Shown here piece by piece: positions 4,721-62,549 of a stretch of DNA of 64,000 bases. The notes below the pieces were generated by a model. It saw only the letters and a list, made by a program, of their open reading frames with translations, was not told the origin of the DNA and searched no databases. This DNA comes from Mobula hypostoma (taxonomy: Eukaryota), in contig NC_086107.1 of the NCBI RefSeq assembly GCF_963921235.1, positions 104,100,001 through 104,164,000 of the forward strand, in the 5' to 3' direction. Both the position numbers and the translations under genes were made by a program. Each line of letters opens with the position of its first letter. The stretch's first letter is position 1.

Positions 4721-5180
4721 TCAAGATTTCCAGCACCTGCAGAACCCCTTGTCTGTGTGTGTGTTTACTTATAGTTGAGATCCAGTGCAGAATAGGCCCT
4801 TCCAGCCCTTTGACCCACGCCAGTCAGCGAACCTGATTTCGCCCTAGTGTAATCACGGGACAATTTACAATGACCAATTAATCTACTGAACACCGGGAGG
4901 AAACCCACGCATTCGACAGGAAGGACGTACAGATCCCTTACAGACGATGTTGGGATTGAACCCCAGACTCCCGATGCCCCGAGCTGTAATAGTGTCGCGC
5001 TAACCGTCACACGGCCGCGAGGCCATGCTGTGCCTTTGTTTGGACTCTGCGGTCTAAGCCATGTTGTTGTTGTTGGCCTGAGAGTATTTGATGGGTTTGG
5101 GTAAAGGGAGCTGTACTGTAGCTGCTGTGCAGTACAAGTCTCTGAGAGTTAACGTGTGACTTGTCTTTTACCGTTCACAG

Positions 5181-5282
5181 GGCGTTGTACTTGCTCTTCT
5201 TGGCTCTCTCATAGCTGGTGGTCTGCTGGTGGGATTCACAATTAAACTTTTGAAGTCACAGAAACAAAACCAGAGCCTTTGA
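5181..5282 (+). CDS. BAX-like gene, terminal exon with C-terminal transmembrane anchor
   Basis: Acceptor tcttttaccgttcacag, phase 0. GVVLALLGSLIAGGLLVGFTIKLLKSQKQNQSL* is a hydrophobic helix followed by basic residues, typical of a tail anchor. Confidence 0.85.
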   Translation, partial: GVVLALLGSLIAGGLLVGFTIKLLKSQKQNQSL

Positions 5283-21050: not shown

Positions 21051-21329
21051 GAGAAAGGGTAACACTGTGCAGTGACCTCCTTACTGTGAGGCTACATTAA
21101 GCTGTGTGTGAAGCCTGATAATGCAAGCGCTGAGTGTCTCTCTGCAAGATTGTAAGACATTGGAGCAGAATTAGGCCATTCGGACCATCGAGTCTGCTCC
21201 ACCATTCCATCACGGCTGACTTATTATCCCACAACCCCATTCTCCTGCACTCTCCCCGTGACCTTTGACACCCTTACTAATCAAGAACCTATCAAGCTCT
21301 GCTTAATATATAACCTATGGCTTGGTATC

Positions 21330-24176: not shown

Positions 24177-25147
24177 TAGTCATAGTCATAGTCATACTTT
24201 ATTGATCCCGGGGAAATTGGTTTTCGTTACAGTTGCACCATAAATAATAAATAGTAATAGAACCATAAATAGTTAAATAGTAATATGTAAATTATGCCAG
24301 TAAATTATGAAATAAATCCAGGACCAGCCTATTGGCTCAGGGTGTCTGACCCTCCAAGGGAGGAGTTGTAAAGTTTGATGGCCACAGGCAGGAATGACTT
24401 CCTATGACGCTCTGTGCTGCATCTCGGTGGAATGAGTCTCTGGCTGAATGTACTCCTGTGCCCAGCCGGTGCATTATGTAATGGATAGGAGACATTGACC
24501 AAGATGACATGCAACTTAGACAGCATCCTCCACCTTGTTACGAATGCTGCTTGCATCCACAATCATCTATGATTAGATTAGATTCAACTTTATTGTCATT
24601 GTGCTGAGTACAGATACAAAGCCAATGAGATGCAGTTAGCATCTGACCAGAAATGCAAAGAATAGTGTTATTTACAAAATAACTGTGAATTAGAAAGTAC
24701 TACAGCACACAAATATAAAAGCACTAAGACAGTACATGGATGCAATACTGCTTAGCGCTGTGATGAGAGGTTCAGCAGTGTCACAGCCTCAGGGAAGAAG
24801 CTCTTCCTGTGCCTGCTGGTGCGGGAGCGGAGGCTCCTGTAGCGCCTACCGGATGGGAGGAGAGTGAAAAGGGCAATGAATTCCACAGATTCACTACTCT
24901 CAGGCTGAAGGAATTCTTCCTCATCTCTGTTCTAAAGGGACATCCTTATGTTCTGGTCATAGAATTCCCCACTATAGGAAACATCCTCTCCACATCCACC
25001 CTGTCAGGGCCCTTCAACATTTAATTGGTTTCAATTCCATCCCCTGACCCCGCTATGGCTTCAGATGTCCTCAGGAGTTATGAAGGACAGATCTGAGTTC
25101 ACTTCTGCACAGCTACCCAGGCCATTGGATTCTGATGCAACCTTGTT

Positions 25148-27225
25148 CATAGAAACATAGAAACATAGAAAATAGGTGCAGGAGTAGGCCATTCGGCCCT
25201 TCGAGCCTACACTGCCATTTATTATGATCATGGCTGATCCTCCAACTCAGAACCCCACTCCAGCCTTCCCTCCATACCCCCTGACCCCCGTAGCCACAAG
25301 GGCCATATCTAACTCCCTCTTAAATATAGCCAATGAACTGGCCTCGACTGTTTCCTGTGGCAGAGAATTCCACAGATTCTCCACTCTCTGTGTGAAGAAG
25401 TTTTTCCTAATCTCGGTCCTAAAAGGCTTCCCCTCTATCCTCAAACTGTGGCCCCTCGTTCTGGACTTCCCCAACATCGGGAACAATCTTCCTGCATCTA
25501 GCCTGTCCAATCCTTTTAGGATCTTATACGTTTCAATCAGATCCCCCCTCAATCTCCTAAATTCCAACGAGTACAAGCCCAGTTCATCCAGTCTTTCTTC
25601 ATATGAAAGTCCTGCCATCCCAGGAATCAATCTGGTGAACCTTCTTTGTACTCCCTCTATGGCAAGGATGTCTTTCCTCAGATTAGGGGACCAAAACTGC
25701 ACACAATACTCCAGATGTGGTCTCACCAAGGCCTTGTACAACTGCAGTAGTACCTCCCTGCTCCTGTACTCGAATCCTCTCGCTATAAATGCCAGCATAC
25801 CGTTCGCCTTTTTCACCGCCTGCTGTACCTGCATGCCCACTTTCAATGACTGGTGTATAACGACACCCAGGTCTCGTTGCACCTCCCCTTTTCCTAATCG
25901 GCCACCATTCAGATAATAATCTGTTTTCCTATTTTTGCCACCAAAGTGGATAACTTCACATTTATCCACATTAAATTGCATCTGCCATGAATTTGCCCAC
26001 TCACCCAACCTTTCCAAGTCACCCTGCATCCTCTTAGCATCCTCCTCACAGCTAACACTGCCACCCAGCTTCGTGTCATCCGCAAACTTGGAGATGCTGC
26101 ATTTAATTCCCTCATCCAAGTCATTAATATATATTGTAAAGAACTGGGGTCCCAGCACTGAGCCTTGCGGTACCCCACTAGTCACCGCCTGCCATTCTGA
26201 AAAGGTCCCGTTTATTCCCACTCTTTGCTTCCTGTCTGCTAACCAATTCTCCAACCACACCAATACCTTACCCCCAATACTGTGTGCTTTAAGTTTGCAC
26301 ACTAATCTCCTTTGTGGGACCTTGTCAAAAGCCTTTTGAAAATCCAAATATACCACATCCACTGGTTCTCCCTTATCCACTCTACTAGTTACATCCTCAA
26401 AAAATTCTATGAGATTTGTCAGACATGATTTTCCTTTCACAAATCCATGCTGACTTTGTCCGATCATTTCACCGCTTTCCAAATGTGCTGTTATCACATC
26501 CTTGATAACCGACTCCAGCAGTTTCCCCACCACCGATGTTAGGCTAACCGGTCTATAATTCCCCGGTTTCTCTCTCCCTCCTTTTTTAAAAAGTGGAGTT
26601 ACATTAGCCACCCTCCAATCCTCAGGAACTACTCCAGAATCTAACGAGTTTTGAAAAATTATCACTAATGCATCCACTATTTCTTGGGCTACTTCCTTAA
26701 GCACTCTAGGATGCAGACCATCTGGCCCTGGTGATTTATCTGCCTTCAATCCCTTCAATTTACCTAACACCTCTTCCCTACTAACATGTATTTCGCTCAG
26801 TTCCTCCATCTCACTGGACCCTCTGTCCCCTACTATTTCTGGAAGATTATTTATGTCCTCCTTAGTGAAGACAGAACCAAAGTAATTATTCAATTGGTCT
26901 GCCATGTCCTTGCTCCCCATAATCAATTCACCTGTTTCTGTCTGCAGGGGACCTACATTTGTCTTTACCAGTCTTTTCCTTTTTACATATCTATGAAAGC
27001 TTTTACAGTCCGTTTTTATGTTCCCTGCTAGTTTTCTCTCATAATCTTTTTTCCCCTTCCTAATTAAGCCCTTTGTCCTCCTCTGCTGAACTCTGAATTT
27101 CTCCCAGTCCTCAGGTGAGCCACTTTCTCTGGCTAATTTGTATGCTTCTTCTTTGGAATTGATACTATCCCTAATTTCTCTTGTCAGCCACGGGTGCACT
27201 ACCTTCCTTGATTTATTCTTTTGCC
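25148..27225 (-). mobile_element. Young CR1 LINE, 5'-truncated, uninterrupted 650-aa RT ORF
   Basis: ORF 25247-27199 has all RT motifs including FADD; (catagaaa)n tail on the + strand at about 25148. Confidence 0.97.
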
Positions 27226-27594
27226 TCTTAGAGATGTTTGATTAATAAAATACCTTTGACCACAAGTCCATCAGGCAGTGGTGTCAAAGTCTGCTGACCC
27301 ACCGACCTGCAGGTCCTTTAGAAGGACATAGTACTTCCTTCAAGATGGCTTCCTGAGCAGACTGTCGGAGTCATTTGGCAGACAGCCTCACCACCGCGAG
27401 GCTCAAATGTGCACAAAGGCCCGAGATGGGTGGTGATGAGGGGCCCCTCCCTCCGCACAACGCACATGGCCGCAAAGTGACTGCAGGGCAGATTGACCAC
27501 AGATTCTTGTGGTCTCTGTTCTTACCAAGGTTGGTACAGTAGGCTTTGATTAATTTGGTCCTAAGCTGCTACGTAACACAGGACTCAATTATTG

Positions 27595-44400: not shown

Positions 44401-45049
44401 CAAAGTTCTGACAAAGGGACTGAGGGGAGATTTAAATTAATAGAAAATCTGGCAGAAAGGGTGAATAAGGAGAAACAATCTCACTTAGCAGATCAGTAAC
44501 CAGGGATTGGATACTAGTTACTTGTAAAGGATTAAAGGGCAACTGAGGAAAGATTTTTCACCCAAGGGTGTTGAGTGCAGGAACAGGTGTCATAGAGTCA
44601 TGAGTAGAGAAGCAGGCACTTCAGTCCATAATGTATCTACTGCCCACCAAGAACATATTCAGTGGTGGAGCAGAAACTCTCAGTGCATTTATGAGTTACA
44701 TGGATGAACACAGAGACACAATAGCTTCTACGGATGCTGGAAATCTTGAGTAACACACACAAAATGATGGAGGAATTCAGCTGTTCAGGCAGCATCTATG
44801 GAGGGGAATAAACAGATAATGTCTTGGACCGAGACCCTTCACCAGGATGACCAGAAGGTGCCATTACATGGGTGCCAACAAGCTTGGAGATGAAGCATGG
44901 TAAAGATCTCAATAGGTGGCTGGTTTGGACTTGAACCAACTGGCCGCCTTCCTCACACTATGCTTTACTGACCCTGCATTCAGAGACTATTAAAATCCCA
45001 GCTTTAATAACCTATTTGTTTTAAACAGGTGAAAGTGAGACCACCTACC

Positions 45050-45269
45050 ATGTCCTATTTTGCATCTCTTCTGGGCCTCCTGCTAATCCTGGCGTTGTCC
45101 ACGACGAGTCCAATGGAGGCAAGACCCCACCAGGATGATCGCATGCAAGGACTCATCCCTAACCCCGATCTGGGGCGGAGGCACCAACACTCCCGTCAGC
45201 ACGCCATCCCGTATGTACAGATCAACGACGACGGGCAAGTCAGCAAGTCGGAGCATCAGAATGAGTACA
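45050..45269 (+). CDS. FGF21: Endocrine FGF (FGF19/21/23 subfamily, probably FGF21), coding exon 1 with signal peptide
   Basis: cctaccATG start inside an exon opened by a ttttaaacag acceptor (exon from 45029). Hydrophobic signal peptide MSYFASLLGLLLILALSTTSPMEA, then YVQINDDGQVSKSEHQNEY, which resembles FGF21 HLEIREDGTVGGAADQSPE and FGF23 HLQIHKNGHVDGAPHQTIY. Phase-1 donor gtaagg at 45270, the canonical FGF intron 1 position. Confidence 0.8.
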
Positions 45270-46226
45270 GTAAGGGAACGGTCCTTTCAACTTTTCCACC
45301 GCACCACAGATTTTTGTTGTCGAGTGATTGTCTGCATGCCAACCTCACAACCCATTCCAAAGTTCAAAGTAAATTTTGTTATTAGAGTTCATATACATCA
45401 CCACATACAACCCTAAGATTCATTTACTTGCAGGCATACTCAGCAAATCTATAGAATAGTAACTGTAAACAGGATCATTGAAAAATCAACCAGAGTGCAG
45501 AAGACAACAAACTGTGCAGATGCAAGTACTGTATAAATAAATAGCAATAAATAACGAGAGCATGAAATAATGAGATAAAGAGTCCTTGAGGTGAGATCAT
45601 TGGTTGTAGGAACACCTCAATGGATGGGCAAGTGAGTGAAGTTATCCCCTTTTGTTCAAGAGCCTGATGATTGAGGGGTAGTAACTGTTCTTGAACCTAG
45701 TGGTGCGAGTCCTGAGACTCTCGTACCATGTACCTGATGGCAGCAGCAAGAGCACGGCCTGGGTTTTGAAGATCTCTGATGATGGATACTGCTTTCCCAT
45801 GACAAAGTTTCATGTAGATGTACTCAGTGGTTGGGAAGATCAATCTAAACACAAAATAATCTACAGACCAATCTAACCCTTCCCTCCCACATAGTCATCC
45901 ATTTTACTTTCATCCATGTGCCTAAGAGGCTCTTAAATATCTCTAATGTATCTGCCTCTACAATCACCCTTGGTTAACAAAAAAAATAATTAAAAAATAA
46001 AAACATTCAGAAATAGAAGCAGAATCATTCAGCCTCATTAAGCTTGTGACTAACCTTTTACCTCATGGCCACTTTCTCCCACTGACCCCATATCCCTGAA
46101 TTGCCTTGATATCCAGAAAAAAACTATGGATTTCTGTCCTGAATATTCACAATTGGCTCTTGGGTAGGGAATTCTGCGATGAAGAAATTTCTTCTCATGG
46201 CCAATCCATTACTTTGAAGCAATAAC

Positions 46227-47046
46227 ATAGAAACATAGAAACATAGAAAATAGGTGCAGGAGTAGGCCATTCGGACTTCGAGCCTGCACTGCCATTTATT
46301 ATGATCATGGCTGATCCTCCAACTCAGAACCCCGCCCCAGCCTTCCCTCCATACCCCCTGACCCCCGTAGCCACAAGGGCCATATCTAACTCCCTCTTAA
46401 ATATAGCCAATGAACTAGCCTCAACTGTTTCCTGTGGCAGAGAATTCCACAGATTCACCACTCTCTGTGTGAAGAAGTTTTTCCTAATCTCGGTCCTAAA
46501 AGGCTTCCCCTCTATCCTCAAACTGTGGCCCCTCGTTCTGGATTTCCCCAACATCGGGAACAATCTTCCTGCATCTAGCCTGTCCAATCCCTTTAGGATC
46601 TTATACGTTTCAATCAGATCCCCCCTCAATCTTCTAAATTCCAACAAGTACAAGCCCAGTTCATCCAGTCTTTCTTCATATGAAAATCCTGCCATCCCAG
46701 GAATCAATCTGGTGAACCTTCTTTGTACTCCCTCTATGGCAAGGATGTCTTTCCTCAGATTAGGGGACCAAAACTGCACACAATACTCCAGGTGTGGTCT
46801 CACCAAGGCCTTGTACAACTGCAGTAGTACCTCCCTGCTCCTGTACTCGAATCCTCTTGCTATGAATGCCAGCATACCATTCGCCTTTTTCACCGCCTGC
46901 TGTACCTGCATGCCCACTTTCAATGACTGGTGTATAATGACACCCAGGTCTCGTTGCACCTCCCCTTTTCCTAATCGGCCACCATTCAGATAATAATCTG
47001 TTTTCCTATTTTTGCCACCAAAGTGGATAACTTCACATTTATCCAT
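46227..47046 (-). mobile_element. Young CR1 LINE 3' fragment in FGF intron 1
   Basis: ORF 46324-47046 is nearly identical to the C-terminus of 25247-27199; (catagaaa)n tail. Confidence 0.95.
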
Positions 47047-47926
47047 TTATCCATTTAACGCCTGGGTCTAGTTACCCGTGCCAGGGGGAAAACCTCCCTG
47101 TCTCCACAGTCCAAGGAGATCTTCCATGAGATCACTTCCTAACCTTCAAGGTTCTGCCCTCAGTGCACCATCACTGATTAAAAAGACTCTGAAAACTTAC
47201 ACTCGCTCCTCAAACACACATTATTTATTTGTGCACAAAGAGATCAGCGTGGCCCCTGTCACCACACTGTCCTGAAGTCTGAATACAGAGATGACATTTT
47301 GTTTCCAAAGCTCCTCAACAAAACTCACTCAGGTATAAAACCCTCACTGTCCGTCCCTGCACAAGGTCTGTTAAATGGTCTTTCCTGCTCTCATTGTTTT
47401 GTTGATAATTATTGAGTCTGTGCATAGTTTCACATGTGACGTTTGCACATGTGACCATCCTGCTAATTGTTAATTGCGCATGACTGTTTGCACTAGTAGC
47501 TGGTTGCTATTGTCTTGTCTGTTCTGGTATTATCCTGTGTTTTATCCTTGGCACTGAACCACAATCAATTCTGATACATTTCAGAAACTGGCAATAAAAT
47601 AGTTCTGATTCAGATTTTCATAGTGAAATTGATTAGAAGTTAGGGATATTGACCATTTGGTCAATTAGATCCCTGCTTGCAAGATCAATCACCATTCACA
47701 ATACAGGTGTTAAAAGTTAATAGAAACTGCAAGCTAAAGTGATGGTGTGCATGTGCTTTGCATCCTCCTGCTACTGTCACGGGGAAGTTGGCTCACAGGT
47801 TTGTTAAGTGAGACAGAAGACAGTGATGATGAATAAGCGTATTAGCCATTTATTTACAGAGAAACAGTAAAACATTTAACCAAGCCTCAAAGTCACCTGA
47901 AGTTACAAAGACTACGACACTAAACA

Positions 47927-49760
47927 TTCATCATAGTTGCTGGTGAACGCAGCAGGCCAGGCAGCATCTCTAGGAAGAGGTACAGTTGACGTTTCAGGCC
48001 GAGACCCTTCGTCAGGACTAACTGAAGGAAGAGTTAGTAAGAGATTTGAAAGTGGGAGGGGGAGAGGGAGATCCAAAATGATAGGAGAAGACAGGAGGGG
48101 GAGGGATGGAGCCAAGAGCTGGACAGATGATTGGCAAAAGGGATATGAGAGGATCATGGGACAGGAGGTCCAGGGAGAAAGACAAAGGACGGGGGGAACC
48201 CAGAGGATGGACAAGGGGTATAGTGAGAGGGACAGAGGGAGAAAAAGAAGAGTGAAAGAAAGAATGTGTGTATAAAAATAAATAACGGATGGGGTACGAG
48301 GGGGATATGGGGCATTAGCAGAAGTTAGAGAAGTCGATGTTCATGCCATCAGGTTGGAGGCTACCCAGACAGAATATAAGGTGTTGTTCCTCCAACCTGA
48401 GTGTGGCTTCATCTTTACAGTAGAGGAGGCCGTGGATAGACATGTCAGAATGGGAAAGGGATGTGGAATTAAAGTGTGTGGCCACTGGGAGATCCTGCTT
48501 TCTCTGGCGGACAGAGTGTAGGTGTTCAGCAAAGCGGTCTCCCAGTCTGCGTCGGGTCTCGCCAATATATAGAAGGCCACATCGAGAGCACCGGACGCAG
48601 TATATCACCCCAGCCGACTCACAGGTGAAGTGTCGCCTCGCCTGGAAGGACTGTCTGTGGCCCTGAATGGTGGTAAGGGAGGAAGTGTAAGGGCATGTGT
48701 AGCACTTGCTCCGCTTACAAGGATAAGTGCCAGGAGGGAGATCAGTGGGGAGGGATGGTGGGGACGAATGGACAAGGGAGTCGCATAGGGAGCGATCCCT
48801 GCGGAAAGCGGAGGGGGGGGAGGGAAAGATGTGCTTAGTGGTGGGATCCCGTTGGAGGTGGCAGAAGTTACGGAGAATAATATGTTGGACCCGGAGGCTG
48901 GTGGGGTGGTAGGAGTTGATAGTGGAGGAAGGGAAGCCCCTTTCTTTAAAAAAGGAGGACATCTCCCTCGTCCTGGAATGAAAAGCCTCATTCTGAGAGC
49001 AGATGCGGCAGAGACGGAGGAATTGCGAGAAGGGGATGGCGTTTTTGCAAGAGACAGGGTGAGAAGTGGAATAGTCCAGATAGCTGTGAGAGTCAGTAGG
49101 CTTATAGTAGACATCAGTAGATAAGCTGTCTCCAGAGACAGAGACAGAAAGATCTAGAAAGGGGAGCGAGGTGTTGGAAATGGACCAGGTAAACTTGAGG
49201 GCAGGGTGAAAGTTGGAGGCAAAGTTAATAAAGTCAACGAGCTCAGCATGCGTGCAGGAAGCAGCGTCAATGCAGTCGTCGATGTAGCGAAGGAAAAGTG
49301 GGGGACAGATACCAGAATAGGCACGGAACATAGATTGTTCCACAAAGCCAACAAAAAGGCAGGCATAGCTAGGACCCATACAGGTGCCCATAGCTACACC
49401 TTTAGTTTGGAGGAAGTGGGAGGAGCCAAAGGAGAAATTATTAAGAGGAAGGACTAATTCCGCTAGACGGAGCAGAGTGGTGGTAGAGGGGAACTGATTA
49501 GGTCTGGAATCCAATCACCTGTCCAGCTCTTGGCTCCATCCCTCCCCCTCCTGTCTTCTCCTATCATTTTGGATCTCCCCCTCCCCCTCCCACTTTCAAA
49601 TCTCTTATTAACTCTTCCTTCAGTTAGTCCTGATGAAGGGTCTCGGCCTGAAACGTCGACTGTACCTCTTCCTAGAGATGCTACCTGGCCTGCTGCGTTC
49701 ACCAGCAACTTTGATGTGTGTTGCTTGAATTTCCAGCATCTGCAGAATTTCTGTTGTTTG
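47927..49760 (-). mobile_element. Penelope-like element (partial RT + GIY-YIG) with inverted pLTR and TSD, in FGF intron 1
   Basis: ORF 48315-49514: QTKGVAMG, RYIDD, FLD, YYKPT, VIYCVRCSRCGLLYIGET. About 200-bp inverted repeat (about 47936-48134 versus 49511-49710); TSD cgacactaaaca at 47915-47926 and 49761-49772. Confidence 0.95.
49626..49661 (+). ncRNA. Minimal type I hammerhead ribozyme in PLE terminal repeat
   Basis: AGTC-CTGATGA-AGG[GTCTCGG]CCT-GAAA-CGTC^GACT: both cores, stem I AGTC/GACT, stem II AGG/CCT and palindromic ACGT stem III. Confidence 0.8.
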
Positions 49761-50209
49761 CGACACTAAACACTCGGTAACACTTCAAACTCAACAGGTA
49801 CCTCATTAAATCTCCCCAAATTAAACCTTCAACAAACAGATACTTAGCTAAGTGTGAGCGTGTGCCCTCCTATATCTGCAGAGCTCTTTCCCAATGGTTC
49901 TTCAGCACTTCTGGCGATCTCAGTGTGAAGGTGAATGCCTGGAGACAAGGGAAACCCCTGAGGCCCCAGGAGCCAGACGCTGGTGAGGTGGCACACAAGG
50001 CAACCAATGGGAAAGAGCTGCTGCATCCTTCAAAGGGCCAGTCCGTGACCGACACCATAGCAGCACCTTTCGATGAGTAAACTAAGCCTTCACATCCTTA
50101 ACTTGTATGCCAAACGACTCCTGTGCTCTGCTGTGCAAAAGCCTTTCTTGCCTGGGTTGACTGCACACACTATCTGTAAACTTATCTGGACACTCTCTTA
50201 ACCCTTACC

Positions 50210-50322
50210 TCAGAATCAGAATCAGATTTATTATCATCGGCATGAGACGTGAAATCTGTTAACTTTGCAGCAACAGTTCAATGCAATACGTAATATAGAA
50301 GAAAATATAAATAAATAAATAA

Positions 50323-50358
<36 letters not shown>

Positions 50359-51108
50359 ATAAATAGATAAGTCAATTACAGTATATATCTATTGAATAGA
50401 TTAAATATCGTGCAAAAAACAGAAAAACTGTTTATTAAAAAAAGTGAGGTAGTGTCCAAGGGTTCAATGTCCATTTAGGAATCAGATGGCAGAGGGGAAG
50501 GAGCTGTTCCTGAATCGCTGAGTGTGTGCCTTCAGGCTTCTGTATCTCCTACCTGATGGTAACAGTGAGAAAAGGGCATGTCCTGGGTGCAGGAGATCCT
50601 TAATAATGGATGCTTCCTTTCTGAGACACCACTCCCTAAAGATGTCCTGGGTACTTTGTAGGCTAATACCCAAGATGGAGCTGACTAGATTTACAACCTT
50701 CTGCAGCTTCTTTCGGTCCTGTGCAGTAGCCCCCCCATACCAGACAGTGATGCACCCTGTCAGAATGCTCTCCACAGTACATCTATAGAAGTTTTTGAGT
50801 GTATCTGTTGACAAACCAAATCTCTTCAAACTCCTAATGAAGTATAGACGCTATCTTGCCTTCTTTATAATACATCGATATGTTGGGACCAGGTTAGATC
50901 CTCAGAGATCTTGTCACCCAGGAACTTGAAGCTGTTCACTCTCTCCACTTCTCATCCCCCTCTGAGGATTGATATGTGTTCCTTCATCTTACCCTTCCTG
51001 AAGGCCACCATCAGCTCTTTCGTCTTACTGACATCCAGTGCCAGGTTGTTGCTGTGACATCACTCAACTAGTTGGCATATCTCGCTCCTGTACGCCCTCT
51101 CGTCACCT
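50210..51108 (-). mobile_element. Rex1/Babar-like LINE fragment including an (ATAA)n(GATA)n microsatellite at about 50305-50370
   Basis: ORF 50482-50829 FYRCTVESILTGCITVWYG...LLPSGRRYR; (aatcag)n tail. Confidence 0.85.
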
Positions 51109-53641
51109 TGCTGACACCTTGACAAATTGCTTGGTATGTGAAGGTTCAGTCGGTGTGGTGCTGAGCTGGGTGTATCTGGGAGGTTGTGGTTCACCCTAGG
51201 GTCTACTGACGCAACTGATAGTGAGCAAACTTTCAATAGGCAGCCTGTCGTTTGTGTCACAACCCACAGCTCCAACGACCCTGGTTCAGCCCTGACCTCC
51301 TCTGCTGCCTGGGTGCTCCGCTTTCCTCCCACATCCCAAAGAGGGATTAGCTTTATTTGTCGCAGGTACATCGATATGAAGTGTGTCTTTTGCTTCGGGA
51401 ATGTGCTGCGGGCAGTTCGCGAGTGTCGCCATGCTTCCGGTGCCAAAATAGCATGCCCGCAGATCAAACCCGTACGTTTGGGAACGCAGGAGGGAAATGG
51501 AGCATCCGGAGTGGTCATGGGGAGAATGTATAAACCCTTTACAGACAGCCGCAGGATCTGAACCCTGATCTTAGAGTTGGCACTGTAATAGCATAATGGT
51601 AACTGGTAGGGTGCTATTCTGCCCCCAAAGGCGTGCGGCTTGGTCAGATAATCTGGTCGCCTTGCTTTGGAATGAATGAATGAATTGACTTTATTACCTA
51701 CATCCTTCATATACATGAGTAGTAAAAATCTTTACGTTAACATCTCTGTCTGAATGTGCAATGTGCAATTTATAATAAATAGTATATACAGCAGGATAGT
51801 CACTATAACATAGAAATACCATTGTATCAGCGTGAATTAATCAGTCTGATGGCCTGGTGGAAGAAGATGTCCCAGAGCCTGTTGGTCCTGGCTTTTATGC
51901 TGAGGTACTGTTTCCTGGATGGTAGCAGCTGGAACAGTTTGTGGTTGGGGTGACTCAGGTCCCCAGTGATCCTTCAGGCCCTTTTTACACACCTGTCTCT
52001 GTAAATGTCCTGACCAGTGGGAAGTTCACATCTACAGATGTGCTGGGCTGTCCGCACCACTCTCTGCAGAGACCTGCAATTGAGGGAAGTACAGTTCCCA
52101 TACCAGGCAGTGATGCAGCCAGTCAGGATGCTCTCAATTGTGCTCCTGTAGAAGGATGTTGTTCAACTGAAAAGGGTGTAAATAAATTCACATGGGTGTC
52201 AGCAGGTCGGAAATGTCTGAGCTATAAGGAGAAGCTGAAAAGCTGGGACCCTCTCCCCTGGAATGAAGGATGACTTTACAGAGGTATATAACAGCATGAG
52301 GGAGTAGAGATGGTCAATCAGTTTCCCAGGATAGGGGAATCTAAAACTAAAGGGTATAAATTTGATGTGAAAGGCAAAAGGGGACCTTAGGGGAAGTTTC
52401 GCATACTGAGGGTGGTGGAATGAACTGCCAAAAGAAAGTGGTAGAAGCGGGTGGAACTGCAACACTTAAAATTCACATGGGCAGGTTTGTGGATAAGGAA
52501 CGTCTGGTGGGATATGGGCCAATTGTGGGGGAAACGGGACTGGCTCAGGTAGATGAGTTGGGCTGAATACATTGGCACTCTGGGACCCCCTGAAGTTGTG
52601 GAAAGTCCCTCTTGTGCAACATTAGGATTGGGGTTGGAAACTTTGCATCTTCTCACTTCTCTTCGACAGGAGGTAACATTAAATAAATCTGCTGAAACAT
52701 GGAACTTATTTAAACTCTAACTAATTATTGGCATTGGTTTATTATTGTCACGTGTACTGAGATACGGTGAAAAGCCTAGTGTAACAGCTACAGGGAAAGT
52801 GCAGGTGGAGATGAAGTGCAGGATCATAACGAGGTCGACTGTGAGATCAAGAGTCTTTCTAATAGTACAAGAGGCCCACTCAACAGACTGATAACAGCTG
52901 TCCTTGAGCCTGGTAGTACGTGCGTTCAGGCTTTCTTATCTTCTGCCTGATGGGAGAGGGGAGAAGCGGGAACGTCCAGAGGGAATGGGTAGCTTTACTG
53001 AGGCAGCGAGAAGGACAGACAGAGCCCATAGAGGAGAGGCCGGTTTCCCTGATACGCTGAGCTGTGTCCACAACTAACAATAAATTTGTGAGCCGCAGAT
53101 GCCTTGTGGGGAAATTTCCACTGAGGTCCCCTTGTGGTATTGACTCATCTCAGTACTTCGGCTGGAAGAGTATCACATTGCATGAGGGACACAGGAGCAA
53201 CTCCCCCCCCCCCCAGCTCTTTGCTCCTCACCGTGATGATTACTATAGGTACCGCAGTTACTGGAACTAGGGGACCTAGCCTCAAGATTTGGAGGAGTAG
53301 ATTTAAGACGAAGATGAGGAGGAATAGTTTTTCCCCAGAGAGTGGTGAATCTGTAGAATTCTCTGCCCAATGAAGCCGTGGAAGCTACCTCAGTAAATAT
53401 ATTTAAGACAAGGTTGGATAGATTTTTTGCATAGTGGGGGAATTAAGGGTTATGGGGAAAAGGCAGGTAGGTGGAGATGAGTCCATGGCCAGATCAGCCA
53501 TGACCTTATCGAATGGCGGAGCAGGGTCGACGGGCCAGATGGCCGACTCCTGCTCCTGTTTCTTGCGTTCTTATACTTTCTGCACCTCCATTTGAAGTTG
53601 GCGTGACCGAGAACGTTACTAACGCTCCCTGTTCCTTGCAG

Positions 53642-53742
53642 CCCTGATGGACATTCAGTTCACCAACACCGGCATCCTGATTAAAGGAAGAAAGAGTGCT
53701 CGCTTCCTGTGCTCACACACCAACAACACCCTGTACAGCACG
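53642..53742 (+). CDS. FGF21: Endocrine FGF, coding exon 2
   Basis: Perfect TACTAAC branch point (53617-53623), pyrimidine tract, cag acceptor and gtgagt donor. 101 nt, phase 1 to 0 (the typical FGF middle exon is 104 nt). (T)LMDIQFTNTGILIKGRKSARFLCSHTNNTLYST matches FGF21 LLQLKALKPGVIQILGVKTSRFLCQRPDGALYGS. Confidence 0.88.
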
Positions 53743-56700
53743 GTGAGTGGCGGGCCATGCATCTCCTTTCGGTTGGGAAGTGCAGAATCTCATTGGTGCT
53801 TGTTTGATGGTCAGGTTATGTACTATATGAGGATGGTCCAACCTCAGTCTATTAATGGTTAACATGCAGTCTGGTTAATCAGTTTTATTAACTAATTATT
53901 AACAGGCTTTGACTGCAAAGGCATTGACAGAGTGCATGTGGAGAGAGTAGGGGAGCCTAGGACCAAAGGGTATAGCCTCAGAATACAAGGCTATCCCCTT
54001 AGAACAGAGATGAGGAGGAATCTCTTTTGCCAGAGGGTGGTGAGCCTGTGGAATGCATTGCCGCAGACGGCTGTGGTGGCCAAGTCATTGGGTATGTTTA
54101 AAGCAGAGATTGATAGGCTCTTGAGTAGTAAGGCCTTCAAAGGTTATGAGGAGAAGGCAGGGGAATGGGGCTGAGGAGGATGATAAGTTAGACAATAGAC
54201 AATAAGCAATAGGTGCAAGAGTAGGCCATTCGGCCCTTCGAGCCATCGCCGCCATTCACTGTGATCATGGCTGATCATCCACAATCAGTTAGCCACAATG
54301 GAATGGCAGAGCAGACTCGATGGGCCGAACAGCCTAATTCTGCTCCTATGTCTAATGGTTTTAGAGAATGTTGGGTCCTCCCGCCTCAGTGCATGGAAGC
54401 ACCTCAGTTCCTACACCCACTCTGCTGACAGCCATCTCTCCATCCCAATTCATCTCCCTTATTCGCCTCTACGTCCAAGAGGCTACAGAAATGAGACACG
54501 TCCCCTTTGACCCTCCCCGACTTTTACTGATGCGCCACAAAGAGCATCCTGTCCATGGCTTGGAACTGTTCGGCCCGCGACCGGGAGAAACCGCAGAGAG
54601 CTGTAAACCCAGCTCAGCGCATCACAGAAACCACGGACTCTGTCTACACTTCTCACGGCCTTGGTAAAGCAGCCAGCCTAATGATTACCACTACCCTGGA
54701 TAGCCTTTCTTCTCCTTCTCCCACTGGGAAGAGGATAGAACAGCCTGAATGCGCACACCCAGCAGGCTCAAGGACAACTTCTGGCCGGCTGTTTTAAGCC
54801 CTCTCGCACTATAAGATAGACTCTTGACCTCACAATCTACTTCTACACTTTCTCCGTAACTGAAACATTATATTCTGTATTCTATTCTTGTTTCCCTTGA
54901 ACTATCTTATGTGTGGATGGCATGCAAAACAAAGTTCCAAAGTTCTTCACTGTATCTCAGAACATGTACATAAACCAGTTCATCCTATTCTATTTCATCT
55001 GGATTTCTAGTAGCAATGGATGAGTAGATATCTCTTCTGATTAAACCTTTGTCTTTGCTTTCTGCCGAATTCTCCATTCCCGAATGCTGCCTTCATCCTT
55101 TGCCCAATCTAGGCATTCCACCTCTGACCTCTGACCCACTGTATCACCAAGGTGAGTGACTGTACTTGCACACCGCAGCCAACAGAGCCACAGCCTCACA
55201 GCTTCAGAGAACTTGGTTCGGTTCTGATCCCGGGCGCCATCTGGGTGGAATTCGCACTTGATCCCCATAGCCACACATTTCCCCTGGGAGCCCCTGTTTC
55301 CTAACCCATCCTGAAGTTTGGTGGGGTTGGTAGGCTAGTTGGCCACTGCAAATTGCCCCCAAGTGTGTGGGTGAGCAGTGGAGTCTGGAGAGAAGGTCAA
55401 TGAAAATGCTCGGAGAACAATAAAACAGATTATTGTAGGATAAATCTAAATGTATTGATGGTCAGCACAGACTTAATGGGCTGAATAGCCTGTTTCAGTG
55501 GAGTATATCTCTCAATGATCTTTCAGTCTTTTCAGTACGGTGGCCTGTGAAGGCTTGATCTGCTCGGATGTGACATCTCCACTGATCGGTTGGAAACACA
55601 CTTTTTCTTCAGAAACTCATCCAAAATGCTATTGTCCACCCTCACACTGCCACCAAGCCCCTTTCATCTGTTACTCCTCTGGTTTGGTCTTTCAAACTCT
55701 TGGATTTAAGATTCCAGTGACTTCAGATCTCCATGGGCCTTTTGTATAAACAAACTTTTCACCCATTAGAATCTACCTGCTTTTCCTGTTCTAGTCTCTC
55801 GATCTCCACAGGTCAGTCTAGACTAGAGTCTGAGTTTGGAGCCTTCTGCCTCTCAACCTCTCCGTCTTTAAAACGCCCCAACAAATCTGATTTCATCCAA
55901 ACCGCTGGCCACTCGTCCAACTGCTTCCTTTCTGTGTCAGTTCTGCGTTGATTTTTTCCCCCTCTATTTCACTCCTGTAGAATGCTTAGGAATTTTATTG
56001 GCATCAAGGGCACAATTGGAATGCAGGTTGGTGATGTTGGCAAGATAAAAATAAAACAAAATACTGCACGTTTCCTGGTTTACGGTTTTGGCTCAGCATC
56101 ACCAGAAGCAGGGAAAATCAAGATAAAATCTAGACTATGTAGCTGAGAAGCTCCACAGTATCATAGGGGCGGGGAGCTCTGTGACAGCCAGGCCATGTTT
56201 TTAAGACATTTTTATAAAACAATCTTAACAATATTAAGGTTTAATGTTCTTAACATGTTTTCTTTAAACCAGTTTCCTTTATGTGTTGAAAGCAAGGTGG
56301 CATTTTAGAAGCCTGACAGAAAGGATACCAGTCAGATTTTCCCAGTGGTTAGGGATTGGGGTATGTTGTCTGGTTAATATACAGGTACTTTGGCACAGCT
56401 GGTAAAACTACTGTCTCACGGCTCCAACAACCAGTTCAATCTGCACCTCGGGTGCTGGCTGTGTGGAGTTTCCACGTTCTTCTTGCGACCAGCTTCCGAC
56501 TGATGCTCCCAATTTCCTTTCACTGAACGTGGCTGCGCAAGTGACCGTGGTAGTAAAGACGGCAGAAGGCACGCTTGCCTTCGTTGGTAGGGCTGTTGAG
56601 CACAGGAGCAAGGAATTTGTGCTGCAGCTGCAGAAAACGTTATTCAGGGCCTTGGAGTATTGTGTTCAGTGCTCGTCACGTAATTATAGGATGGGTATGC

Positions 56701-59700
56701 AGATTGTGGAGAGAGTGCAGATGTTTACCAGGATGCTGTCTGGCTTAGAAAATATGAGCCATAAGAAGCTGGACAATTCACAGTAGCGTAACAGTTAGCA
56801 TGACTTGGGGCGTCGGAGTTCAGAGTTCAATTCCAACGTCACAAGGTACAAAGTAAATGGCAGGATACTTGGTAGTGTGGAGGAGCAGAGGGATCTCGGG
56901 GTACATGTCCACAGATCCCTGAGAGTTGCCTCACAGGTGGATAGGGTAGTTAAGAAAGCTTATGGGGTGTTGGCTTTCATAAGTCGAGGGATAGAGTTTA
57001 AGAGTCACGATGTAATGATGCAGCTCTATAAAACTCTGATTAGGCCACAATTGGAGTACTGTGTCCAGTTCTGGTCACCTCACTATAGGAAGGATGTGGA
57101 AGCATTGGGAAGGGTACAGAGGAGATTTATCAGGATGCTGCCTGGTTTAGAGAGTATGCATTATGATCAGAGATTAAGGGAGCTCGGGCTTTACTCTTTG
57201 GAGAGAAGGAGGATGAGAGGAGACATGATAGAGGTGTACAAGATAATAAGAGGAATAGATAGAGTGGATAGCCAGCGCCTCTTCCCCAGAGCACCACTGC
57301 TCAATACAAGAGGACATGGCTTTAAGGTAAGGGGTGGGAAGCTCAAGGGGGATATTAGAGGAAGGTTTTTTACTCAGAGAGTGGTTGGTGCGTGGAATGC
57401 ACTGCCTGAGTTAGTGGTGGAGGCAGATACACTAGTGAAGTTTAAGAGACTACTGGACAAATATATGGAGGATTTTAAGGTGGGGGATTATATGGGAGGC
57501 AGGGTTTGAGGGTTGGCACAACCATGCTGTACTATTCTATGTTCTATGTTCTATGTTCTATGTCACCTGTAAGTAGTCTGCACGTCCTCTCTGAGAATGT
57601 GTAGGTTTCCCCCCGGTGCTCTGAATTCCTCCCACAGTCCAAAGATTCACAGTACATCTATTGTCAAAGTGGTTGGTTGGCATCCGTCTGTCTCAAAGGA
57701 CAATAGGTGATGATGATCATCACAAGCCTGGGTGGAAGGTGTGGAGATCCTGAGATGCCCAGTCATCAAGATCCCCCTCTTGGCCTCACCAGTGCAGTCC
57801 AAAGGAAAGCTTATGAAGCCATACATCTGGCACCAGCTTGGCTGCAGGAGCTGCTGGAAGGAAGTTCAATGACGTCCGGCCGCTTTAGGGGCTCCACTCC
57901 GGATTTGCCATCTGGGCTTACTCCCGTAACCTTTGTCTCTCCTGAGGCTGCCCACAAGGCAGTGGGGCACTGGGGATCTGATTCACAAGCACCAGGGGTG
58001 TGTCCACACGTAGGTGGGCCTGGGCAAGGGCATGTGTGCAAGGGCCAGACCTCCTCCCCACACTCTGTGGTTCAGCCCAATTCCAAAAGGAGTTCGTTTA
58101 TTGCCAGCAAGGAGGCACTACATGAGGCTTCCTGTTGGAGAGGGTATGCACTATATTATCAACGTATGTATGCGGTGTACAACCCTGAAATTCATCTTCC
58201 CCACAGACAGTCATGAAACAAAGAAGAACAATGGAAACAACCAAATATCAAACATCAATCCCCCCTTCTCACCCCTCGTGCAAAAAAAAGGGCAAACGGC
58301 AACAACAAAAAAGAGCGAAAGACACAGAATGTGAAACTCAAAATCAAAAGGCTTATTTCAGCTCAGTGTTTGTGGCCTGTAGGTCGTCCTGATTCAAAAA
58401 TCGCCCAAACGCAGTAACAATACAGAAGCAGCCAGAACTAGAACTAGAACACGTTATAAACCTGAATTAGAGTCCAAACCTACATCCACACTGATCAAAC
58501 CTCGCTCCGGCACCATCCCCTGACAGCATTGAGGGTTAAAAGGTTAATTGTCCCATGATTAGTCTCGTATTGCTTTTGTGGGTTGCTGGCAGCGGGGCTC
58601 AAAGGGCTGGAAGCGACTATTCTGTGTGGTATCTCTAACTAAATAAAATCTGGGTTGCTGTCCCTCAGAAGCTGAGTGGAGACCTGATGGAGGTTTTTAA
58701 GATTTACCATGCCCATGGTCTGCTCTTTATCAAATTATGGCATTGCTTTGCACTGTTGTAACTATATGTTATAATTATGTGGGTCTGTCAGTGTTAGTCT
58801 TTGGTTTGTCCTCTTTTTCTGTGATATCACTCTGGAGGAACATTGTATCATTTCTTAATGCATGCATGCATTTCTAAATGACAATAAACGAGGACTGAGT
58901 GTCCTCATAATCTAATCGAAAAAGATTATGAGGCATAGATAGGGTAGACAGTCAGAAACTTTTCCCCAGGGTAGAAATGGCAGATCACAATCAGAATCAG
59001 GTTTACTATCACCGGCGTGTGTCGTGAAATTTAACTTAGCAGCAGCAGTTAAATGCAGTACATAATACAGAAGAAGAAGAAATAATAATGATAAATAAGT
59101 AAATCAATTACAGTATATATATATATAGAATTGATTAAAAATTGTGCAGAAACAAAAATAAATATTAGAAAAGTGAGGTGGTGTCCATTCAACGTTCATT
59201 TAGGAATCGGATGGCAGAGGGGAAGAAGATATCAGAGGATATGCTGTTAAGGTTGAGGGGGTGAGGTGTTTAAAGGCAAGTTTTTTTACGCAGAGAGGGG
59301 AAGATGTCTGGAATAGGTTACCAAGAGTGGCCGTGGAAACAGGCAGTTTGGTGGGGATTTAGGGGTGTTCAGATGGTCATGAATACAAAGAGAACGGAGG
59401 TTTATGGATGATAGGAGGACATTTAGTATAAATTGGCATCGAGATCAACACACCATGGGCCAAGTGGCCAGTCCAGTGTTTAACTGCTCTAAGCAGATCC
59501 TGAAGACGCGTGGGTTGGTGGTTAATTGGCTGTTGTCAGTAGGTGGTGGGAGGCTCAGAGGTGTGTTGGTGGGATGTGAGAGAGACTAGCTTGCAGAGGA
59601 ATGGAATAGCAATGGGTCTGCTGTTGTAAGGCGAAACGTGGAGGAGGTGGGAGACTACTACTTACATCAGAACTGATAAAGAGACACGGAAGCCGTGGTA

Positions 59701-60529
59701 GTAGGGTCACGGTTAGCGCGTCACTGTTACAGCTGTGGGGCAACGGGAGTTCAGAGTTCAGAGTTCAGTCCCTGCGGTTTTCCCCGGGTGCCCTGGTTTC
59801 TTCCCACAGTCCAAAGACGTACCGGGTAGGTTAACTGGTCATTGTTAAATTGTCCCATGATTGGGTTAGGGTCAAATCGGGGTTGCTGAGCAGTGCAGCT
59901 CGAAGGGCCTATTCCGCACTGTATAAATTGAAGCCGGTTGATCCCGAGTAGCACACGTAATAATAATAATAGGCATCCATTAGTCTCGTGAGACCATGGA
60001 TTTGGAAGATTTCCAGGCCTGGGCAAGGTTGTATGGAAGACCAGCAGTTGCCCATGCTGCAAGTCTCCCCTCTCCACACCACCAATGTTGTCCAAGGGAG
60101 GGGCATTAGGACCCATACGGCTTGGCACCAGTGTCGTTGCAGAGCAATGTGTGGTTAAGTGCCTTGCTCAAGGACACAACACGTTCCCTCAGCTGGGGCT
60201 CGAACTCACGACCTTCAGGTCACTAGACTGACGCCTTAACCACCTGGCCACGCGCCAACACAGTAGCACACAAAATGCTGGAGAAACTCACTAGATTGGG
60301 CAGCATCTCTGAGGGGGAATGGACAGTCGGTGTTTTGGCTCGAGGCCTCTCATCGGGACTGGAGAGAGAGAGTGGGGGAGGGGAAGGAGATCGCCAGTGT
60401 GCAAGCGAAAAGGTGGAGGGAAGGGGCGGTGAGCAGGGAAGTGAGAGTGGGAATGGTCTCAGGTAGGTAGAAGTGACTATGGGTCAAAGATGACAGGACA
60501 GTGGAGCACGGGACAGAGCGAGGTGAAGA

Positions 60530-60835
60530 TCAGAACAGGTGGGGGAAGTTTGCAGATGATGGACAGACGGAGGGGAGGAGAGGGGAGACAGACAGGTAAT
60601 GGGGGCCGTTTGGATCAGGTGGGGGAGTTTGCAGGTGATGGACAGACGGAAGGCAGGGGAGAGGAGACAGGTAATGGGGGCCGTTTGGATCAGGTGGGGG
60701 GAGTTTGCAGGTGATGGACAGACAGAGGGAGGGGAGACAGGTAATGAGGGCCGTTTGGATCAGGTGGGGGGAGTTTGCAGGTGATGGACAGATGGAGGGG
60801 AGGGGAAACAGGTAATGGGGGCCATTTGGATGAGG
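60530..60835. repeat. G-rich tandem repeat of about 70 bp, about 4 copies, just upstream of FGF exon 3
   Basis: ggatcaggtggggggagtttgcaggtgatggacaga...acaggtaatgggggccgttt recurs at about 60612, 60687 and 60757. Confidence 0.9.
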
Positions 60836-60971
60836 AGCAGAGTGAAAAGAGACATTGGGGAGAGAAAGGGACGTTGGGGGGGGGGGGACTTTGTGAATTC
60901 GAGGTTGGAAACCTGAGCACTCATTGCAGTTTTACGATCTTCACAACTCTGAACCCTATGTCTGCTTTCAG

Positions 60972-61145
60972 CCCGAGCCAACAGAGAACTGCAAATTTAC
61001 GGAGGGCACCGCCGGCAACCCGTTAAGTAACGACGACGACCTTCAACCACGCAGCCCTCCACAGGCGGAGAAGGACCGCGAATGCATGCAACCCGGAAGG
61101 CTCAATCCCAATTCAGCAGATCCGCTGGGAATGCTGGTGTGTTGA
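60972..61145 (+). CDS. FGF21: Endocrine FGF, coding exon 3 (short, internally deleted)
   Basis: Acceptor tgtctgctttcag, phase 0. PEPTENCKFTE matches the FGF C-x-F-x-E motif. The C-terminal NSADPLGMLV matches FGF21 SSDPLSMV, FGF19 DSMDPFGLV and FGF23 SDPLGVV. TGA at 61143-61145; ATTTA elements follow in the 3' UTR. Confidence 0.8.
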   Translation, partial: PEPTENCKFTEGTAGNPLSNDDDLQPRSPPQAEKDRECMQPGRLNPNSADPLGMLVC

Positions 61146-62549
61146 GATAGATACACATCACGGCTCTGAAGTTCAGCAATAGCCTCAGATATTATTTATT
61201 TAAACAGTTATCCATCACTATGAATGAATTGTTTTATTTATGCTAAGGTTATCTACATACTGTGAAAGGCTGACGCTGGTTTATTTTGGTAACCCTTTTT
61301 ATATAAATGGTTGTTCGATATTTGCAAGGCGTCTCTGACTTCTCAGTTTCTTCTGGCACAAAATAGGGGACATCTCCCCGTGTTGGCTGCTGGGGTGGGG
61401 TGGGGAGAGGATTGGTTTAGTCACTGATATGGAAATTTGGACTGGGCTCCTGGTTAATCCGACTACTAAACCAGGACTAGTCAACCTCGTCACTGGTGAG
61501 AGGTGTAGAGTAATCCGGTAACAACGCCCTCCACCCCAAAAAAAAACAAGGGCTCAAGTTCCAAAAATAATTTTAAATCGGGTAAGAACCTCTCTAATCT
61601 ACTGCCCATTACGCCACCGGAGTTGAGGGCAGCAGTGAAGATCCCCAGATCCCCATCGCTGGCGATGTTGGTTTTCACCACCGTCAATCATGCAAATCCC
61701 GGTTGGAGACTCAGGAATACCGTCGCACTCAGATGTAGAAGGCTTCATTCGCTAGTTCCGTAACGATTTTGTTTGACCAGTCAGGGTTGTTGGACTAGAT
61801 TTGAACCCCCGAACTTGGAGGACTGGTGGACCACTCCTAGTCGGGCCTCTACCCTTTGACCTGTTTGGCATGGGTGACCCTACCAAGTCCCAAAGCGTAA
61901 ATCCCTGACTCCAGCCAACATAGCTCTCCGGGTCACTCTGAGGCACGCATGCCTCCAACCCAACACAAGGCTGTGGTGCTCTTGGAGGAGTTAACAATAT
62001 AAAACCTAGAATCTAGCTAACAAAAATACTGAACAAGATTTGATATCACCCACAAATGTTGTGAAATTTGTTAACATAGTGATTAATAACCACAAAACTG
62101 TGCAATTTTTGGCTCTAATGCTCTTTAGAGAAGACCAGGTTCAGCCTAACCGGAGACTGCCCCTGAAATGACATAATGAGGCATTCAGTCATATGATTGC
62201 ATGGCCTCAATCTGAAACATTGACCTCCACAGATGCTGCCTGACCTGCTGAGTTCTTCCAGCAGTTTAGTTTTTGCTCCAGATTCCAGCACCTGCAGCCT
62301 CTTGTGTCTCCACAGAATGACCTACCACTGCATTCCTTCCATACGTTTAAGAAGTTCTGATTGGCCAGGTCATCAAGGGATATGGTGAGAGGGCAGGTGT
62401 ATGGGGTTGAATGGGATCCGGGATCAGCCATGATGTAATGATGGAGCGGACTCAAAGGCGTAACTTCATGACTAAGTGATGAGGAAAATGCCAGTGTTTT
62501 CAAATAACTTTGTCAAGAGCGGACACTGGCATTACAGATAAGAACTGCA

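Follow-up and report, generated by a model that had tools for sequence, protein, structure and literature searches.

A shortened, conserved FGF21 ortholog of sharks and rays and its possible Klotho-directed tail

The stretch of DNA analyzed here (referred to as the window; 64,000 nucleotides) corresponds to C45:104100001-104164000 of the Mobula hypostoma genome, where C-numbers designate contigs of that genome. It carries a three-exon gene for a short, FGF21-like protein, which is very probably a truncated ortholog of FGF21 that has been kept under constraint. A preliminary description of the same DNA had proposed a secreted FGF21-like product with a truncated beta-trefoil, a retained Klotho-binding-type motif and either a decoy function or a gene in decay. 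The features of this gene, all on the plus strand and numbered from the first base of the window, are as follows.

45029..45049 (+): 5' leader of exon 1, reading VKVRPPT in frame with the ATG
45050-45269 (+): coding exon 1, 220 nt, ending in phase 1 (script translation)
53642-53742 (+): coding exon 2, 101 nt, ending in phase 0, encoding beta4-beta7 and the first conserved Cys (SARFLC)
60972-61145 (+): coding exon 3, 174 nt including the stop codon (TGA at 61143-61145)
45209..61004 (+): conserved part of the trefoil core (beta2-beta8, residues 54-118), shared among the three exons (alignment, Pfam)
61083..61142 (+): C-terminal Cys-bounded loop C145...C164 (CMQPGRLNPNSADPLGMLVC), delimited by Cys spacing
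61119..61133 (+): D-P-L-G-M, putative Klotho site-1-type motif, with D, P and M invariant in all five short proteins described below

Joined in phases 1 and 0, the three exons form a stop-free open reading frame (ORF) of 164 amino acids (495 nt), as had been predicted. Exon 1 encodes a hydrophobic leader, a variable N-terminal stretch and strands beta2-beta3 (PYVQINDDGQVS...), while exon 3 covers beta8, including the second conserved Cys (ENCKF), then beta9-10 in degenerate form and the C-terminal loop, without beta11-12. All splice sites are of the GT-AG type (ACA/GTAAGG, TTCCTTGCAG/C, ACG/GTGAGT and CTGCTTTCAG/C), with good polypyrimidine tracts and a TACTAAC 5' of the exon 2 acceptor, and the exon junctions of this ray's FGF19 and FGF23-like genes fall at homologous places. 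The motifs RFLC, ENCKF and SADPLGM were all found, SADPLGM being followed only by LVC and the stop codon, and the other two frames of exon 3 are indeed closed by a stop 17 to 18 codons into the exon, a few codons past the position of CKFTE. The hydrophobic N-terminal leader of the window ORF (LLGLLLILAL) has a Kyte-Doolittle mean of 3.25, and a similar stretch occurs in all five short proteins (mean of 2.8 to 3.3 over 10 residues); the product is predicted to be a secreted protein of approximately 140 mature residues. When compared singly with Pfam and PDB, exons 1 to 3 gave no match, as they are too short, and the FGF assignment consequently rests on the whole proteins of the orthologs.

A word-based search with exon 1 retained 4 proteins out of 72 candidates, all of them from stingrays (three isoforms of Hypanus sabinus LOC132383002 and one Hemitrygon akajei protein). 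Identity to these proteins was 79 to 83% for exon 1 in this search and 83.5% by tblastn, and exon 2 was 90.6% identical to Hemitrygon (tblastn). Using the FGF-like part of a stingray protein as a query, two shark proteins were identified among 15 candidates: a Heptranchias perlo protein of 160 amino acids named "fibroblast growth factor 21-like" and an uncharacterized Mustelus asterias protein of 163 amino acids, both annotated alone and starting at Met. In the ray genome the shark ortholog matches only the window locus, with exon 2 as its best match (E 2.3e-8). Across the three rays and two sharks, the latter from two shark orders, the FGF-like product measures 160 to 167 amino acids, and all five species agree in their exon junctions, in the shortness of exon 3 and in the stop position (within one codon). 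As the junctions and the short C terminus are kept in four other species, the FGF21-like gene is beyond chance, and as the short form is common to five species with separate assemblies, the truncation is not confined to this genome and does not reflect faulty assembly. An ortholog of the short form in chimaeras was not found in an exhaustive search of representative proteins (chimaera genomes were not searched).

The suggestion in the preliminary description that the gene might be decaying while keeping its frame did not hold. The two sharks and three rays share one architecture, their core sequences are 72 to 75% identical (47/65 to 49/65, rays versus sharks), the cysteine spacing is conserved, and the C-terminal part is ungapped. 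Core identity was 55/65 between the two sharks and also between the window and Hypanus. Full-length pairs in the same alignment gave 54/66 (ray versus chimaera FGF23-like), 37/67 (ray versus frog FGF19) and 36/67 (coelacanth versus paddlefish FGF21), so that, judged by aligned residues, the ray-shark core identity is as high as that between full-length orthologs. At five positions that are near invariant in 11 canonical FGFs, all five short proteins carry another fixed residue (E to D, A to F, V to T, M to S and G to S). The best tree places the short clade on a long stem (1.4 to 1.55 changes per column), while its inner branches are short. Since the short form occurs in both sharks and rays and its core and tail motif are strongly conserved, the shortening appears to be old and the gene to be under purifying selection, a signature of one old remodelling followed by constraint and not of decay. 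Decay since the shark-ray split is effectively refuted by the architecture and conservation in five species. That the gene is a pseudogene keeping its frame by chance, or the product of an assembly deletion in exon 3, is barely credible: no RNA run is on record for the stretch and structure prediction fails with family rows only, but five separately assembled species agree in length and architecture and show neither a frameshift nor a stop, their cores are strongly conserved, and their stop codons fall within one codon of each other.

To define how much of the FGF fold is left, the five short proteins were aligned with 11 full-length endocrine FGFs (16 rows). In this alignment the N-terminal strand beta1 (RHLYT) is replaced by an unrelated polar sequence, in agreement with the earlier observation that an RxLYT strand could not be recognized. 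Strand beta9 (GYNLY) is likewise replaced, with a 3-residue gap; at the place of beta10 the sharks retain LNLSP where the others read V(S/T)LS; and the beta11-12 segment PPLSxFLP is deleted, the tail of the short proteins resuming after the deletion at [ILV]-N-x-N-x-x-D-P-[LMV]-[GE]-M. A GYNxY...FLP segment, which had been reported missing, was also not found in the window when it was searched by tblastn with 10 full-length endocrine FGFs; only exons 1 and 2 were matched (best E 4e-4), and a whole-genome search with a coelacanth FGF21-like protein yielded nothing near the window at E<=1. Orthologs P0004 and P0002 match Pfam PF00167 at 39.5 and 39.0 bits, respectively (cutoff, 24), with the match spanning only profile positions 13 to 83 of 124, and PDB sequence matches (FGF7, FGF23, FGF21 and FGF19) end where the Pfam match ends. 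The trefoil is therefore truncated as proposed, shortened at both ends with D-P-L-G-M kept; a complete 12-strand core is lacking, and only beta2-beta8 remain.

Structure prediction was performed on a shark protein using AlphaFold2 (AF2). With full-length FGFs in the alignment, six confident strands were obtained over residues ~47 to 112, with a predicted local distance difference test score (pLDDT) of 87 to 94. A Foldseek search with this model aligned FGF structures of 123 to 142 residues over 59 to 74 columns (root mean square deviation of <3), and at rank 10 identified 3ogf_A, the designed protein Difoil-4P, aligned over 79 of 81 columns with a template modeling score by target of 0.67. Like Difoil-4P (PDB 3ogf), the short protein is approximately two trefoil subunits long, and its predicted folded part superposes on the designed chain; unlike it, the short protein is natural and asymmetric and lacks beta1, whereas Difoil-4P is symmetric and designed and, according to its PDB title, a homo-trimer. 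This likeness raises the question of whether a two-thirds trefoil could complete itself by self-association or pairing, in which case the assembly could still signal via FGFR and Klotho. An incomplete trefoil would expose core residues, and the mature Hemitrygon protein has an odd number of cysteines, both of which would fit such an arrangement, but beta1 is gone too, leaving no clean pair of trefoil units, and no assembly would contain the residues that contact FGFR. We consider self-completion improbable. A homo-trimer modeled from three copies of residues 44 to 118 of the shark ortholog, with the alignment not used, scored 0.14 (mark, 0.32) and is counted neither for nor against self-completion.

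To identify which FGF the window gene represents, relatives were collected in an exhaustive search of representative proteins, which returned 13 proteins at E<=0.001, 2 belonging to the short family and 10 being endocrine FGFs. The thirteenth, P0008 (2,961 amino acids), matches only residues 115 to 152, in 7 separate stretches, and was not among the proteins whose names were retrieved. Among the ten endocrine FGFs, five carry the source name FGF21 or FGF21-like, three FGF19 or FGF19-like and one FGF23, and the remaining one, an unnamed coelacanth FGF, was the best of the ten. In the Protein Atlas the shark ortholog fell among FGF clusters only. The ray genome contains three loci of the endocrine FGF subfamily, at C45:14.65 Mb, at C66:24.47 Mb and in the window. 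The first (L010, C45:14652000-14655000) groups with frog FGF19 (support, 98/95) and adjoins two FGF genes and an anoctamin gene, and the second (L009, C66:24470300-24472100) is FGF23-like and groups with lungfish FGF23 (95/87). Contig C66 also holds a glycogen synthase gene, a BCAT gene and an anoctamin gene directly adjoining a neurotrophin gene. In the best tree (17 rows, 182 columns), the short clade stands with the FGF21 set at a support of 70/84.

Gene order was more informative. Matches to the BCAT family occur at C45:104183464-104185457 on the minus strand, approximately 22 kb past the stop codon of the FGF21-like gene and convergent with it. These were found with NCBIfam TIGR01123 (Pfam PF01063 gave 0 matches for BCAT in the genome), and the call is at the family level, not BCAT2 over BCAT1, the other copy being that on C66. 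The consensus order <-FUT1, FGF21->, <-BCAT2, <-HSD17B14 is described as stable in many species in a table of PMC5377540, and as the convergent BCAT gene downstream reproduces its FGF21-> <-BCAT2 part, it is taken as the decisive marker for FGF21 orthology. On the same contig are an NT4-like neurotrophin gene at C45:90.3 Mb (162 bits to NT-4, with BDNF proper at 25.0 Mb), RUVBL2 at C45:91.35 Mb and a glycogen synthase gene at 95.8 Mb. NT4, RUVBL2 and GYS are neighbors of FGF21 on human 19q13.33. The gene immediately upstream is a UBZ/BCL2-like gene and not FUT1. The claim that the protein is FGF21-like was thus upheld, and made more specific, by membership in the FGF19/21/23 subfamily, by BCAT synteny and by the presence of FGF19 and FGF23-like genes elsewhere in the genome; its identity as the elasmobranch FGF21 ortholog is well supported by gene order and sequence relationships.

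Some further observations concern the paralogs and their surroundings. Callorhinchus milii P0011, whose source name is "fibroblast growth factor 19," groups with lungfish FGF23 (95/87), and P0011 and its ray ortholog L009 look like misnamed FGF23 orthologs. Contig C45 joins a cluster of FGF19/FGF4/FGF3 type, BDNF and anoctamin genes (13.7 to 25 Mb) with the FGF21 region (90 to 104 Mb), thus uniting on one contig two paralogous blocks that occupy separate chromosomes in humans. A third glycogen synthase gene is located at C45:52.4 Mb.

Compared with FGF21 of bony vertebrates, the short protein shares the three coding exons in phases 1 and 0, a hydrophobic N-terminal leader, the YLC...C.F pair, the convergent BCAT gene and the tail motif [ILV]-[DN]-x-x-S/x-x-D-P-[FL]-x-M. 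It differs in that beta1 is unrecognizable, beta9-10 are degenerate and beta11-12 deleted, in lacking the distal S-P-S and an upstream FUT gene, and in having an extra Cys pair around the tail motif; it is also shorter (160 to 167 residues, versus 202 to 234 for the aligned FGF21 and FGF21-like proteins). Both cysteines of the endocrine pair YLC...(D/N)C.F are invariant in 14/14 rows of alignment A1 (C93 and C110 of P0005), and the pair is present in all 16 rows of the alignment used to assess the loss of the fold. Cysteines 97, 114, 145 and 164 (window numbering) are spaced alike in the window and in the two sharks, Mustelus and Heptranchias. Although the sequence after the core varies, the C-terminal part of the five short proteins can be aligned ungapped, and its D-P-x-x-M aligns with the DP[FL]xM of canonical FGF21, FGF19 and FGF23 tails. 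In exon 2 (~53677-53694), the sequence G-R-K-S-A-R (ORF residues 86 to 91), at the beta5-beta6 turn, is invariant in all five proteins. It fits R-x-x-R, the minimal furin-type cleavage pattern.

In solved FGF-FGFR complexes, the main FGFR contacts of FGFs are made by beta1, the beta8-beta9 region and beta12. With beta1, beta9 and beta12 gone, canonical engagement of FGFR would be impossible, and the most likely route of action would be through the conserved tail loop on a Klotho co-receptor. The proximal Klotho-type motif would sit in a loop closed by the second Cys pair, the conserved two-thirds core could supply stability or a second binding surface, and the protein would serve as a competitor or modulator of full-length endocrine FGFs or as a Klotho-only ligand. 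Candidate co-receptors are encoded in the genome, with a beta-Klotho-like exon at C5:70.0 Mb (402 bits to beta-Klotho versus 283 to Klotho) and an alpha-Klotho-like exon at C21:151.4 Mb (345 versus 322 bits). In the mammalian data of PMC6056499, FGF21 binds beta-Klotho through two tail sites (residues 183 to 198 and 204 to 209), both sites matter, distal truncation inactivates FGF21, and tail peptides of FGF19 and FGF21 compete for beta-Klotho. The terminal S-P-S is missing from the short protein, as the preliminary description had said, the protein ending 2 to 3 residues past the proximal motif; its loss is less telling than had been assumed, as the full-length FGF19 of the ray (L010), which ends ...NSMDPLDFTYEAT, only seven residues past DPL (DFTYEAT), and frog FGF19 (P0012) are also without it. 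Because the ray's own FGF19 lacks S-P-S, the distal beta-Klotho site may be dispensable in the elasmobranch lineage, and the requirement for it may not be general.

Peptides from the C-terminal tails of FGF21, FGF19 and FGF23, as well as truncated forms of FGF21, are comparable to the short FGF21 in that each bears a tail element of the Klotho-binding type but no FGF core competent for the receptor. C-terminal fragments of FGF23 antagonize FGF23. Unlike such peptides, which are fragments of, or engineered from, a full-length hormone, the short FGF21 is the only product of its gene; it also keeps a conserved core of 65 residues, and it is without the distal site on which mammalian peptides depend (PMC6056499). 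Birds are a second vertebrate lineage without canonical FGF21, as given in the review PMC4586497; there the gene is reported as not detected, whereas in elasmobranchs it was reshaped and then conserved.

A number of results count against a Klotho-directed FGF21. On orthology, an intact FUT-family gene is present at C66:58.4 Mb and not upstream of the FGF21-like gene. In approximately unbiased (AU) tests, holding the clade with FGF19 was not rejected (p 0.18) and holding it with FGF23 was only marginally rejected (p 0.044), so that the tree alone, which lends FGF21 affinity weak support, does not settle it. On the fold, the AF2 model has a mean pLDDT of 66 and is of low confidence outside the core, and with only 4 short-family rows the prediction was unusable (mean pLDDT of 35.8); as the core is confident only when full-length FGFs are aligned, that confidence reflects homology and is no proof of autonomous folding. 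On the tail, only the proximal Klotho-binding-type site is present in the window protein, the distal site needed in mammals being missing, and the two dasyatid stingrays read DPVEM and have lost the terminal Cys, which shows that the tail loop is not strictly fixed. Conservation is strongest in the core and lower in the tail, a pattern that fits a core-based function as well or better. Finally, the evidence for transcription in Mobula hypostoma is thin, as it consists of a single short contig. This 242-letter contig of run X1 lies on 60971-61209 (exon 3) with zero differences, and its last 3 letters depart from the intron. It is a weak hint of the pattern expected from a spliced transcript ending four bases into exon 2, with the status of X1 as RNA being a guess. 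Among the listed pieces of four runs, which are mostly repeats, none lay on exons 1 or 2 and no joint across either intron was found.

The pattern of conservation could also mean that the core gained a new partner and that the protein has a new function unrelated to Klotho or FGFR, the tail being kept for some other role such as folding, secretion or processing. The core is the best conserved part (42-44/55 and 47-49/65 residues identical between rays and sharks), the five near-invariant canonical positions are fixed to other residues in all five short proteins, a long stem leading to a clade of short branches is what a functional shift would leave, and GRKSAR is invariant in 5/5. The tail, however, still fits the canonical FGF21 pattern [ILV]-[DN]-x-x-x-x-D-P-[FLMV]-x-M over 11 residues, and the searches yielded only FGFs and suggested no alternative partner. 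Such a core-based function is somewhat unlikely in itself and nearly as likely as a Klotho-directed ligand. The Klotho-directed, FGFR-independent mechanism of the short FGF21 is proposed tentatively, from sequence comparison. The full statement, that this is a truncated FGF21 ortholog, old and constrained, which acts via a Klotho-directed tail, is plausible while falling short of probable, and the more specific suggestion of a natural Klotho-binding, FGFR-inactive ligand, built as a tail loop constrained by a disulfide on a two-thirds trefoil scaffold and serving as an endogenous antagonist or a Klotho-only hormone and predating the shark-ray split, would at present be rather doubtful.

The remaining features of the window are the end of the upstream gene and interspersed repeats, the latter recognized as reverse-transcriptase-type ORFs resembling those of long interspersed nuclear elements (LINEs).

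~2-154, 1039-1182, 3358-3453 and 5181-5282 (+): last four exons of the upstream UBZ/BCL2-like gene (tblastn, translation)
17499-19697 (+), 21281-24226 (-) and 25247-27241 (-): reverse-transcriptase-type, LINE-like ORFs
46324-47046 (-), 48315-49514 (-) and 56799-57509 (+): reverse-transcriptase-type, LINE-like ORFs

The product of the upstream gene has two zinc fingers of UBZ type, which weakly match the finger of RAD18, and a BCL2-like end, ...PWISRMGGW, which closes exon 3358-3453 (weak Pfam Bcl-2 match, E 0.18), while exon 5181-5282 adds a hydrophobic tail anchor and the stop codon. Its exons in the window share 84 to 94% identity with Mobula birostris protein P0037. Relatives carry the source name "uncharacterized protein" only, no ortholog outside elasmobranchs was found in the single search made, and the Protein Atlas returned zinc-finger look-alikes only (best score, 0.82; no name). 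The preliminary description had overlooked that NCBI models in two stingrays splice this gene in frame onto exon 1 of the FGF21-like gene. All four stingray models have a long foreign N terminus ahead of the FGF-like part; in both Hypanus and Hemitrygon the tail exon is bypassed, and GGW is joined in frame to an acceptor located 21 nt 5' of the FGF21-like start codon. In the window, a candidate acceptor (ttttaaacag/G at 45028/45029) lies directly 5' of the exon 1 leader, and same-frame stop codons occur just 5' of VKVRPPT (script translation).

These models allow a reading in which the FGF-like exons are mainly alternative 3' exons of the upstream gene, with an intracellular or membrane product and no hormone. 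In the three Hypanus isoforms and the one Hemitrygon protein, ...PWI(T/A)RMGGW runs in frame into VKVRPPT-MSHF..., the window has both a donor (TGG/gtgagt at 3453/3454) and the acceptor at 45028/45029, and the VKVRPPT that precedes the Met is identical in the window and both stingrays (models P0001-P0004). Set against this, the upstream gene's own terminal exon, with its hydrophobic tail and stop, is kept in the window at 5181-5282, none of 10 further relatives from 9 other elasmobranch species is fused, six of the eight that were fetched end in a hydrophobic tail, the shark FGF21-like proteins are annotated alone from Met, and the two genes lie 40 kb apart in the window. This reading is very unlikely, and the fused stingray models are probably read-through products or annotation chimeras. 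In a fused product the FGF leader would come directly behind the BH2-like motif, as a hydrophobic segment inside the chain.

At 3606-4721, within the upstream gene's last intron, lies a 32-bp minisatellite (34.8 copies, 91% matches). As 32 is not a multiple of 3, the repeat generates open frames in all frames and on both strands (up to 410 amino acids), and these ORFs were rejected as genes, being repeat derived. The LINE-like ORFs fill the intergenic space and both introns of the FGF21-like gene and account for most read pile-ups; one ORF in intron 1 is presumably of Penelope type with a GIY-YIG-like end.

No paper on FGF21 in cartilaginous fish was found in the literature search, which did not extend to subscription journals, and the sequences are public under automatic names only; no printed description of the short FGF21 was found. 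Two sets of names can now be corrected, as the chimaera "FGF19" groups with FGF23 and the stingray "uncharacterized protein" models are two-gene fusions. More broadly, mammalian FGF21, a drug target, ranks among the major hormones of fasting and stress and addresses FGFR with its core and beta-Klotho with its tail, and the FGF21 of sharks and rays should not be assumed to work as it does in bony vertebrates. That a vertebrate subclass keeps, under selection, an FGF21 without the receptor-binding third of its core amounts to a natural experiment on the parts that remain, and the short FGF21 is a candidate endogenous Klotho modulator with a naturally constrained Klotho-binding-type loop. Elasmobranchs rely heavily on ketone bodies and, to our knowledge, lack adipose tissue. 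Given this use of fuels, a changed FGF21 axis in elasmobranchs would be of physiological interest, and a Klotho-binding ligand of the kind proposed, if confirmed, may be tied to their unusual fuel metabolism.

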